From contig CBDDTI010000487.1 in NCBI GenBank assembly GCA_965233585.1, forward strand, positions 1 to 21,728: a DNA stretch of 21,728 nucleotides, given 5' to 3'. This DNA is from a bacterium. Lineage in GTDB: Bacteria > SAR324 > NAC60-12. A program made the position numbers and the translations under genes. This document shows, piece by piece, positions 2,654 through 2,900 of the stretch (positions are counted from its first letter, which is position 1; each line of letters begins with the position of its first letter). The notes under the pieces were generated by a model. It saw only the letters and a program-made list of their open reading frames with translations. It ran no database searches and was not told the DNA's origin.

Positions 2654-2900
2654 AAGAGAAAAAAGGAAGAGATCTGACTTAGTCCTATGACAAAAGCCCC
2701 TATACCAATGGAAATGTCAAAGGGGCACGTGACAACACAAAGACGTCACCAAAAAGATCAATTACACAGCGATTGCGGACCGACTTAGGACGGTCAGTTT
2801 GTGTAACTACAGTCACCCAACTGGTGTGGTTTACCCGTTTTACAGGGCCCACCTTCCCACTCACCGCAATAGTTGTGTAATCGAGGGTAAGAACACGCAA
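2654..2900 (-). mobile_element. Retroelement 3' end / pLTR-like fragment carrying a twister ribozyme
   Basis: Highly structured ~250-bp segment ending in a pyrimidine-rich tail on the minus strand (GATCTCTTCCTTTTTTCTCTT). It resembles an abundant oyster interspersed repeat that I recall as the tail of a Penelope-like family (unverified). Confidence 0.55.
2761..2881 (-). ncRNA. Twister self-cleaving ribozyme, circularly permuted type-P5
   Basis: Minus-strand elements: P5 2881-2864 with 2778-2761; P2 GUGG (2860-2857) with CCAC (2829-2826); L1 GAAGG (2856-2852); P1 GCCC/GGGU hairpin; cleavage triplet AAA (2832-2830); P3 hairpin 2822-2796; P4 ACC/GGU closing loop GUCCUAAGUC (2791-2782). Pseudoknots are CCU:AGG and AC:GU. 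Confidence 0.82.

Follow-up and report, generated by a model that had tools for sequence, protein, structure and literature searches.

A probably active type-P5 twister ribozyme with an A-U swap in each pseudoknot, in what may be a truncated short interspersed element

Twister ribozymes require three stems, P1, P2 and P4, to which P0, P3 and P5 may be added, and each type of the class takes its name from the stem in which the termini lie (PMC5408937). A sheared A-G pair prolongs the four pairs of P2; in P4 the extension is made up of a G-C pair that is invariant and of a trans U-A pair. Two pseudoknots complete the fold: T1, made of three pairs and an A-A contact between L4 and L1, and T2, in which the GC of L2 pairs with two bases of L4; the U at position -1 is less conserved (PMC5408937). 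Here we describe a candidate twister on the minus strand of a 21,728-nucleotide stretch of DNA (contig CBDDTI010000487.1 of assembly GCA_965233585.1; the whole stretch is referred to below as the window), where it occupies positions 2881 to 2761. We consider that it is probably an active ribozyme of type P5, carried by a 5’-truncated copy of an element that resembles a short interspersed nuclear element (SINE).

Natural twisters have recently been surveyed on a large scale, and ~94% of ~2600 candidates were active (McKinley et al. 2024). Defects in P1, P2 and P4 were tolerated in that work, as were imperfections in P3 and P5, and any base was accepted at position -1, with a mean fraction cleaved of 0.72 for A compared to 0.76 for the control. 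Replacing the adenine at +1 abolished activity in 5 of 5 natural cases. Insertions in L1 on the 3’ side of the pseudoknot strand were broadly tolerated and L2 was highly variable; P3 was frequent (1705 cases) and every ribozyme bearing P5 cleaved well. About 1000 of the recent candidates came from searches seeded with the canonical 16-mer of P4/L4 (McKinley et al. 2024). P1 has been described as dispensable (McKinley et al. 2024; Kobori and Yokobayashi 2016), and in the rice twister most pseudoknot pairs can be replaced by other pairs (Kobori and Yokobayashi 2016). RTE elements have also been reported to carry variant twisters (T-variants) at their 5’ ends (PMC8501958).

Thus the twister class, the type-P5 topology and repeat-associated twisters in eukaryotes are already known. 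What is new at this locus is the family to which it belongs, a double swap in the pseudoknots that is fixed in the family and hides it from standard searches, and a SINE-like context with occasional tandem copies. In the accessible parts of the literature we found no published equivalent of a twister in a SINE-like repeat with tandems.

A twister layout with compensated pseudoknot changes

All core twister features are present at 2881-2761 in the order of a type-P5 molecule, which supports the twister interpretation (Table 1). The locus had been proposed as a twister by a reading of the sequence letters, and the minus-strand letters given in that original prediction are exact; our check of the pairing likewise bears out its order of elements, P5, P2, P1, P3 and P4, with both pseudoknots formable. 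The molecule ends in P5 on the 3’ side of L2, and loops close P1 and P3, as the topology demands. The conserved G-A, of which the guanine serves twisters as general base, is given by G2856 and A2855 immediately after GUGG, and directly 5’ of P2 the context A2832/A2831-A2830-CCAC provides any base followed by A and then A at the predicted cleavage site. A2830 and G2856 flank P2 at the positions where the sheared pair would form. P4 forms all four of its pairs between ACCG (2794-2791) and CGGU (2782-2779), that is, three base pairs and the extending pair G2791-C2782, and within L4 U2790 and A2785 are placed for the trans pair.

It is in the pseudoknots that the candidate departs from the consensus letters. 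All three T1 pairs can form (A2854-U2787, G2853-C2788 and G2852-C2789), and so can both T2 pairs. The paired changes noted by the original prediction are indeed there, as CCU:AGG in T1 and AC:GU in T2, with an A-U pair replacing one G-C pair in each. Of the 10 letters of L4, 8 are those of the twister consensus, and the other two are offset by changes in their pairing partners. Comparable swaps have been assayed in the rice twister Osa-1-4, in which the double mutants G13A/C31U and G47A/C27U had relative activities of 0.89 and 0.88, respectively (Kobori and Yokobayashi 2016). By our own mapping of that molecule onto this one, G13A/C31U would correspond to the A2825-U2783 swap and G47A/C27U to the A2854-U2787 swap.

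We estimated how often such a layout would arise by chance with a descriptor of the type-P5 core. Its fixed letters were the G-A after P2, the AA before P2 and G-U...A-A...C in L4; any Watson-Crick or G-U pair was allowed in P1 (3 bp), P2 (4), P4 (3), T1 (3) and T2 (2), with 0-4 nt between T1 and P1, a P1 loop of 3-20 nt and 1-60 nt between L2 and P4. The window holds one match, at 2881-2761. From 6 Mb of Markov-1 sequence that took the window as its model, we expect 1.4e-3 matches per window, or ~66 per Gb, and because of this rate the core descriptor alone would be unconvincing for a genome-wide scan. P3 and P5 add further constraints, as they stand exactly at the places of the optional twister stems with junctions of 0-3 nt. 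For P5, 16 or more Watson-Crick pairs out of 18 at the 28 allowed offsets have a probability of ~1.3e-6, and for P3 a flush hairpin of 11 bp or longer arose in 33 of 20000 random 29-mers (a factor of ~1.7e-3). The geometry of P5 and P3, together with the single descriptor match, makes a chance origin improbable.

Folding energies are consistent with a structured RNA. The 131-nt stretch containing the candidate has a lower folding energy than all 200 of 200 dinucleotide shuffles (z = -3.2). The nested part of the twister structure has an energy of -46.1 kcal/mol compared to -48.5 for the unconstrained minimum, which forms a nested version of the T1 pairing in place of P2 and P4; the five pseudoknot pairs are uncounted in both values.

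These results bear on the idea that the stretch is a structured repeat of another kind, such as a hairpin-rich segment of a SINE or of a miniature inverted-repeat transposable element (MITE), and that its likeness to twister is coincidental. The chance rate of the core descriptor speaks for this idea, as do the lack of a significant model match and the abundance of inverted repeats and long hairpins in the window. However, the coincidence would have to extend to stems at the P3 and P5 places of a twister, with a joint probability of ~1e-12 per window, to the compensation of both departures from the L4 consensus, and to a family in which the most conserved codons are those of the catalytic core. 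We therefore regard a non-ribozyme repeat as highly improbable. A twister-sister ribozyme, a class without pseudoknots that cleaves on the opposite strand of the loop, was rejected as well, since both pseudoknots are formable here and no Rfam match to it was found at E<=10 in scans of 451 and 141 nt around the candidate.

Sequences resembling L4 occur elsewhere in the window. Fourteen sites match the L4 motif with at most one mismatch: the ribozyme itself, 12 sites in a 69-nt satellite described below, and one at 21561. The rest of the twister motif is absent at the other 13, and the window thus holds a single copy. A degenerate 23-mer covering P4, L4 and P5 matched one locus in bacterial and archaeal genomes, on a contig of a metagenome-assembled genome of Bacteroidota (locus L001); its flanks are unrelated, and we take it to be a chance match. 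Within the candidate, UUACACAA..CU is common to the P5 5’ strand (2864-2881) and the P3 3’ strand (2795-2807) on the minus strand. P3 and P5 could accordingly pair 5’ strand to 5’ strand and, over 7 pairs, 3’ strand to 3’ strand. This likeness between P5 and P3 may reflect an alternative fold or be the trace of an internal duplication.

Table 1 Elements of the candidate ribozyme and extent of the repeat unit around it, in window coordinates
Feature	Positions	Strand	Evidence or remarks
Repeat unit, window copy (approximate limits)	2640..2955	-	tblastn envelope of 295 family open reading frames
P5 5’ strand	2864..2881	-	16/18 Watson-Crick pairs with 2761-2778
P5-P2 junction UGA (L2 3’ strand)	2861..2863	-	sequence
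P2 3’ strand GUGG	2857..2860	-	4/4 pairs with CCAC 2829-2826
L1 3’ strand GAAGG: candidate catalytic G2856, A2855, T1 strand A2854-G2853-G2852	2852..2856	-	
UGG insertion between T1 strand and P1	2849..2851	-	3 nt; displayed without comment in the original prediction
P1 hairpin: GCCC, loop UGUAAAAC, GGGU	2833..2848	-	3 G-C pairs and one G-U
Predicted scissile bond, A2832 (-1) / A2831 (+1)	2831..2832	-	inferred from the N/AA-P2 layout
A2830 (putative sheared-pair partner of G2856) and P2 5’ strand CCAC	2826..2830	-	placement, pairing
T2 strand in L2, AC instead of GC	2824..2825	-	A2825-U2783 and C2824-G2784 pairs
P3, optional hairpin on the L2 5’ side	2795..2823	-	flush 11 pairs, C2823-G2795 closing, -7.7 kcal/mol
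P4 and L4, ACC-GUCCUAAGUC-GGU	2779..2794	-	T1 strand CCU 2789-2787, T2 strand GU 2784-2783
P5 3’ strand	2761..2778	-	codons R43 to I48 73-96% conserved

A repeat family with a nearly invariant core

The family to which the candidate belongs was found through spurious open reading frames (ORFs) that cross the ribozyme. A 67-residue minus-strand ORF (2700..2903) gave 428 matches at E<=1e-3 in a word search, and a profile search returned 3950 matches at E<=1e-3, 2302 of them with E<=1e-10, among 1.84e9 representatives; an antisense ORF (2733..2951) had 37 matches. The figures given below for the family of the 67-residue ORF come from the best 120 of the 428 word-search matches, and those based on the profile from the best 150 of 3950, a choice of best-scoring matches that biases them toward conservation. 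Family matches run in several frames and on both strands, with frameshifts between copies, which indicates conservation at the level of nucleotides and not of protein.

Conservation is concentrated in the ribozyme. It reaches 90% or more in 32 columns; 30 of these fall in codons 8-48, which cover the ribozyme, and the other two follow directly, although the flanks are blurred by frameshifts and the contrast between ribozyme and flanks is to that extent overstated. Core codons, including those for the variant AAG, ACC and UCG states, are ~96-97% fixed. Lys17 (AAG, where the canonical AGG would give Arg) is present in 172 of 179 copies and none has Arg; Thr27 (ACC) is found in 203/210, Ser41 (UCG) in 211/217, Pro39 (CCN) in 205/217, Asn25 (AAY) in 205/215, Gly16 (GGN) in 172/177 and His26 (CAY) in 192/199. 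The codons of P4 and L4, D37 to V42, are 97-98% conserved, and S15 and G16, in the P2 3’ strand, are 92-97% conserved among the best 120 of 428 matches. Bases that sit at third codon positions of the sense frame, and are hidden there, are revealed by the antisense frame: Arg19 (32/37, with 4 Lys) specifies U2787, Leu41 (25/25) A2854 and Pro42 (22/25) G2856. The same 37 antisense-frame copies have A at position -1 in 21 cases and U in 15. The original prediction had worried that A at this position weakens the copy, a concern that is largely unfounded given that the family carries A or U and that the cleaved fractions cited above hardly differ.

Subfamilies differ in the P1 loop and 3’ strand (VNQ, VKP or VKR in translation), in distal P3, in P5 and in the flanks, and the core is spared. 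Read from the translations, the differences in P3 and P5 restore pairs: the family-majority Ala at codon 11 (GCN) makes 2873 a G, which pairs with C2769 and repairs a P5 mismatch, and the majority C at 2800 pairs with G2818 and repairs a mismatch in P3. At codon 14, in the junction between P5 and P2, the majority Gly makes 2863 a G.

The distribution of copies suggests what kind of repeat carries the ribozyme. Many family members extend at least ~100 nt further upstream than the window copy, which therefore looks 5’-truncated, and the downstream end is common to members. A 3’ end held in common by copies whose 5’ ends vary suggests that the copies were shortened in the course of target-primed reverse transcription. 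A second copy in head-to-tail orientation was found in 4 of 258 ORFs, at ~255, 300, 420 and 429 nt, where just ~14 ORFs were long enough to hold one; second copies 300-430 nt away are seen in the family members P0284, P0346 and P0392. As the copies are mostly solitary, with few head-to-tail pairs, variable 5’ ends and a common 3’ end, we describe the element as SINE-like: it would be a non-coding interspersed repeat of ~300-430 nt that is mobilised by a reverse transcriptase.

A relative of the window segment 244-654 (P0080) bears on the mobility of the element. Its reverse-transcriptase ORF has an in-frame insertion of 45 residues that matches window ~2792-2660 in two frames. What has been inserted is a 5’-truncated copy of the element: it begins inside L4, runs through the remaining 3’ portion of the ribozyme and ~100 nt of downstream sequence, and ends where the other family members end. 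From this it follows that the region of the ribozyme moves or is repeated, and that the element has inserted into retrotransposon copies. In another sequence, P0360, a copy of the element is joined to antisense reverse-transcriptase sequence. Downstream of the candidate, CUAAGUC (2682-2676) echoes L4, and was dismissed as a coincidence as the family majority at this codon is Glu and not Lys.

The window has a reverse-transcriptase-like fragment of its own on the minus strand (188-648; ~150 residues, ~460 nt) with a YLDD motif and a frameshift at 247, which belongs to a very abundant family with 1755 relatives in the protein collection. Because this fragment lies on the same strand as the ribozyme and downstream of it (648-188), the ribozyme might serve as the 5’-processing module of an autonomous RTE-type retrotransposon in the manner of the Perere-3 T-variants. 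A relative of the fragment, P0049, combines an AP-endonuclease domain with a weak match to RVT_1, and the published twister variants at RTE 5’ ends offer a precedent. However, the fragment covers just residues 397-548 of the 821-residue relative P0003 and is separated from the ribozyme by 2.1 kb, and of 19 ORFs between or near the two none scored as high as a Pfam curated cut-off, the sole listing being a sub-cut-off match to Zn_ribbon_DnaG on the ORF of the fragment itself. Furthermore, the flanks of family ORFs are unrelated beyond ~430 nt, and in P0080 the element interrupts a reverse transcriptase. A full endonuclease-reverse transcriptase ORF directly downstream was not found, and we rejected the ribozyme as the head of the downstream element; an origin of this kind is very unlikely.

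Weighing activity against a dead relic

Catalysis by the window copy, its cleavage site, its transcription and the mechanism of its mobilisation are matters that we infer. In a minus-sense RNA, P2, P4, T1 and T2 would stack, which would place G2856 and A2831 at the A2832/A2831 bond, and cleavage there would leave a 2’,3’-cyclic phosphate and a 5’-OH. The predicted products are a 5’ piece of ~50 nt and a 3’ piece of ~71 nt, which P5, P2 and the pseudoknots might hold together. In the element, such a ribozyme may trim read-through or multimeric transcripts to unit length.

A number of observations weigh against this interpretation, the first of them from covariance models. At gathering thresholds, Rfam gave 0 matches in the whole window, and a scan of 451 nt (2600-3050) at E<=10 returned 4 matches with no twister among them. 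A scan of 141 nt returned 3, of which the top one was Twister-P5 (RF02684) with 14.1 bits against a cut-off of 37.6 and an E of 0.69. Thus the significant covariance-model match that the original prediction looked for did not appear in the Rfam scans. In the sub-threshold alignment only P4/L4 has a high posterior, 27 model positions (P1 and L1) are deleted, and the P2 of the model is placed on the tip of P3, so that P2 and P1 are misaligned. The Twister-P5 model has 58 positions and includes neither P3 nor P5; the 27-nt P3, which is not in the model, plausibly explains the failure, as this insert and four non-consensus letters together would make the true alignment costlier than the false one. 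No other ribozyme family in Rfam matched at E<=10 in the 451-nt and 141-nt scans.

Other points concern the molecule itself. P1 has only four pairs (GCCC 2848-2845 with GGGU 2836-2833), with UGG standing between it and T1, and in the larger subfamilies it apparently has just 2-3. The window copy has two mismatches in P5 (2873x2769 and 2871x2771) and one in P3. The accessible part of Kobori and Yokobayashi (2016) reports each of the two swaps singly and not both combined.

The remaining points come from the family and the repeat. Family data are amino-acid translations, in which third codon positions are invisible in the sense frame. The states of Thr27 and Ser41 could be compared in 175 copies, where 162 had Thr/Ser, 2 Ala/Ser and 1 Thr/Pro; the Ala/Pro double change occurred in none (0 of 175), so that the pseudoknots show no covariation within the family. 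The covariation among family copies that the original prediction had hoped for, in the pseudoknots and core, is therefore missing, although we judge invariance to be uninformative in this respect; because the family core is invariant, the argument from compensatory changes rests on comparison with the canonical consensus. The window copy is solitary and, as noted, apparently 5’-truncated. It has no target-site duplication in its flanks (looked for as exact repeats of 7 nt or more and, with 1 mismatch, of 10 nt or more), no tRNA-like head was found to support a SINE-like reading, and the element lacks an A-rich tail, the sense-strand 3’ end being pyrimidine-rich.

Taken together, these points could describe a relic, that is, a descendant of a twister in which this copy, or even the whole A-U-swapped family, has lost useful cleavage and in which the motif persists as the copies are young. 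Apart from the low Rfam score, the short and offset P1, the stem mismatches, the state of the window copy and the pairing of swaps described singly in the accessible literature, such a history would fit the CpG-type decay seen in individual copies (for example R43H and R45C), and the identity of the core could reflect recent amplification. Yet the divergence between subfamilies lies in the loop of P1, the distal part of P3, P5 and the flanks, and not in the core. Each swap alone keeps 0.88-0.89 of the activity of the rice twister, and defects of P1 and of the auxiliary stems are tolerated in a class where ~94% of the natural candidates cleave. We thus consider loss of function unlikely, while giving it more weight than the other alternatives, and favour a ribozyme that is probably still active.

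If the family is what it appears to be, several consequences follow. More tentatively, the window may contain a copy of an undescribed non-autonomous retroelement with a twister processing module, present in thousands of copies in an animal-like genome and a counterpart of the hammerhead retrozymes and Sm-alpha; we regard this fuller picture as possible, and less likely than its alternatives taken together. Head-to-tail copies of such an element would release unit RNAs of 300-430 nt with ends inside the ribozyme, which could be ligated into circles. A fixed swap in each pseudoknot would make the family invisible to Rfam models and to seeds based on the canonical P4/L4 16-mer. Because a family of thousands of copies lies under the Rfam threshold and is missed by canonical 16-mer seeds, censuses of eukaryotic twisters are probably incomplete. 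The two pseudoknot swaps, fixed together in nature, also provide a ready-made test of whether the effects of such swaps are additive. Lastly, a twister in a short and sometimes tandem SINE-like repeat would extend a picture of ribozyme-processed small retroelements in animals that so far consists of hammerheads only.

Setting of the locus and comparison with known systems

The window DNA looks like animal-type eukaryotic sequence. Its GC content is ~0.35-0.43, its longest ORFs have at most 122 residues, and no tRNA genes were found in it.

The window contains many other repeats. In a whole-window Rfam search at E<=1, the remaining matches were generic long hairpins that hit microRNA-precursor models below their cut-offs. 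Two hairpins, at 9640-9791 (65-nt arms, 82% complementarity) and 3124-3296 (32-nt arms, 94%), matched several such models with scores far under the cut-offs, on both strands, and are probably palindromic MITE-like repeats; the latter lies ~250 nt upstream of the ribozyme on the ribozyme’s strand. The 69-nt satellite mentioned above (11034-12067) has ~12-15 copies of 95% identity and a strongly A-rich plus strand (AT skew 0.39). Its unit contains GTCACAAGCC, one mismatch from the L4 motif of twister, with the rest of the ribozyme absent, and has no Rfam match. A tandem repeat of 161 nt (5224-6011; 4.8 copies, 93% identity) has a diverged extra copy at 7312-7475, 1.4 kb off, and its units are crossed by open frames on the minus strand.

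Runs of 12-17 C or G residues occur at 7715-7743, 8060-8101, 17433-17474/17690-17731, 19584-19609 and 20957-20986, and one pair of them forms inverted arms of 42 nt that are 86% complementary and 215 nt apart, which suggests another repeat family with homopolymer cores. Two further pairs of inverted repeats, 4666-4729 with 5040-5112 (27-38-nt arms, ~310-370 nt apart) and 14944-14993 with 15846-15895 (50-nt arms, 852 nt apart), both resemble terminal inverted repeats such as small DNA elements have.

The closest described class is Twister-P5 (RF02684, clan CL00120), with which the candidate shares the order of elements, the 4-bp P2, the N/AA cleavage context, the G-A after P2 and the P4/L4 module, as well as the two pseudoknots and the open P5. 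It differs in its 27-nt P3, the UGG before P1, the long P5 of 18 bp and the A-U pairs that replace G-C in both pseudoknots, and it reaches 14.1 of the 37.6 bits that the family model demands.

When circularly permuted, the layout also agrees element for element with that of the twisters of S. mansoni (Liu et al. 2021, PMC8501958). A C-G pair opens P3 directly after the 2-nt L2 strand in both, and several of the S. mansoni copies have AAA at the cleavage site as here; they too are eukaryotic, high in copy number and associated with repeats. Unlike the candidate, the S. mansoni twisters are of type P1 and have the canonical GAGGG, GC and GUCCCAAGC, and in their layout GAGGG abuts P1 with no counterpart of the UGG. 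Furthermore, the T-variants head the RTE element Perere-3, whereas the candidate does not head such an element. None of the L4 strings GTCCTAAGTC, GUCCUAAGUC, GTCCTAAG and GUCCUAAG occurs in the supplementary file of PMC8501958.

In its way of life the element would come nearest to Sm-alpha and the non-LTR (long terminal repeat) hammerhead retrozymes (Cervera and de la Pena 2020, PMC7229834). The candidate belongs to the twister class and most of its copies are apparently solitary, whereas the hammerhead retrozymes form head-to-tail repeats of ~150-450 bp, each with one ribozyme. Like them, it is a short, non-coding, low-GC repeat of a few hundred nucleotides, with one putative self-cleaving motif per unit and some of its copies arranged head to tail.

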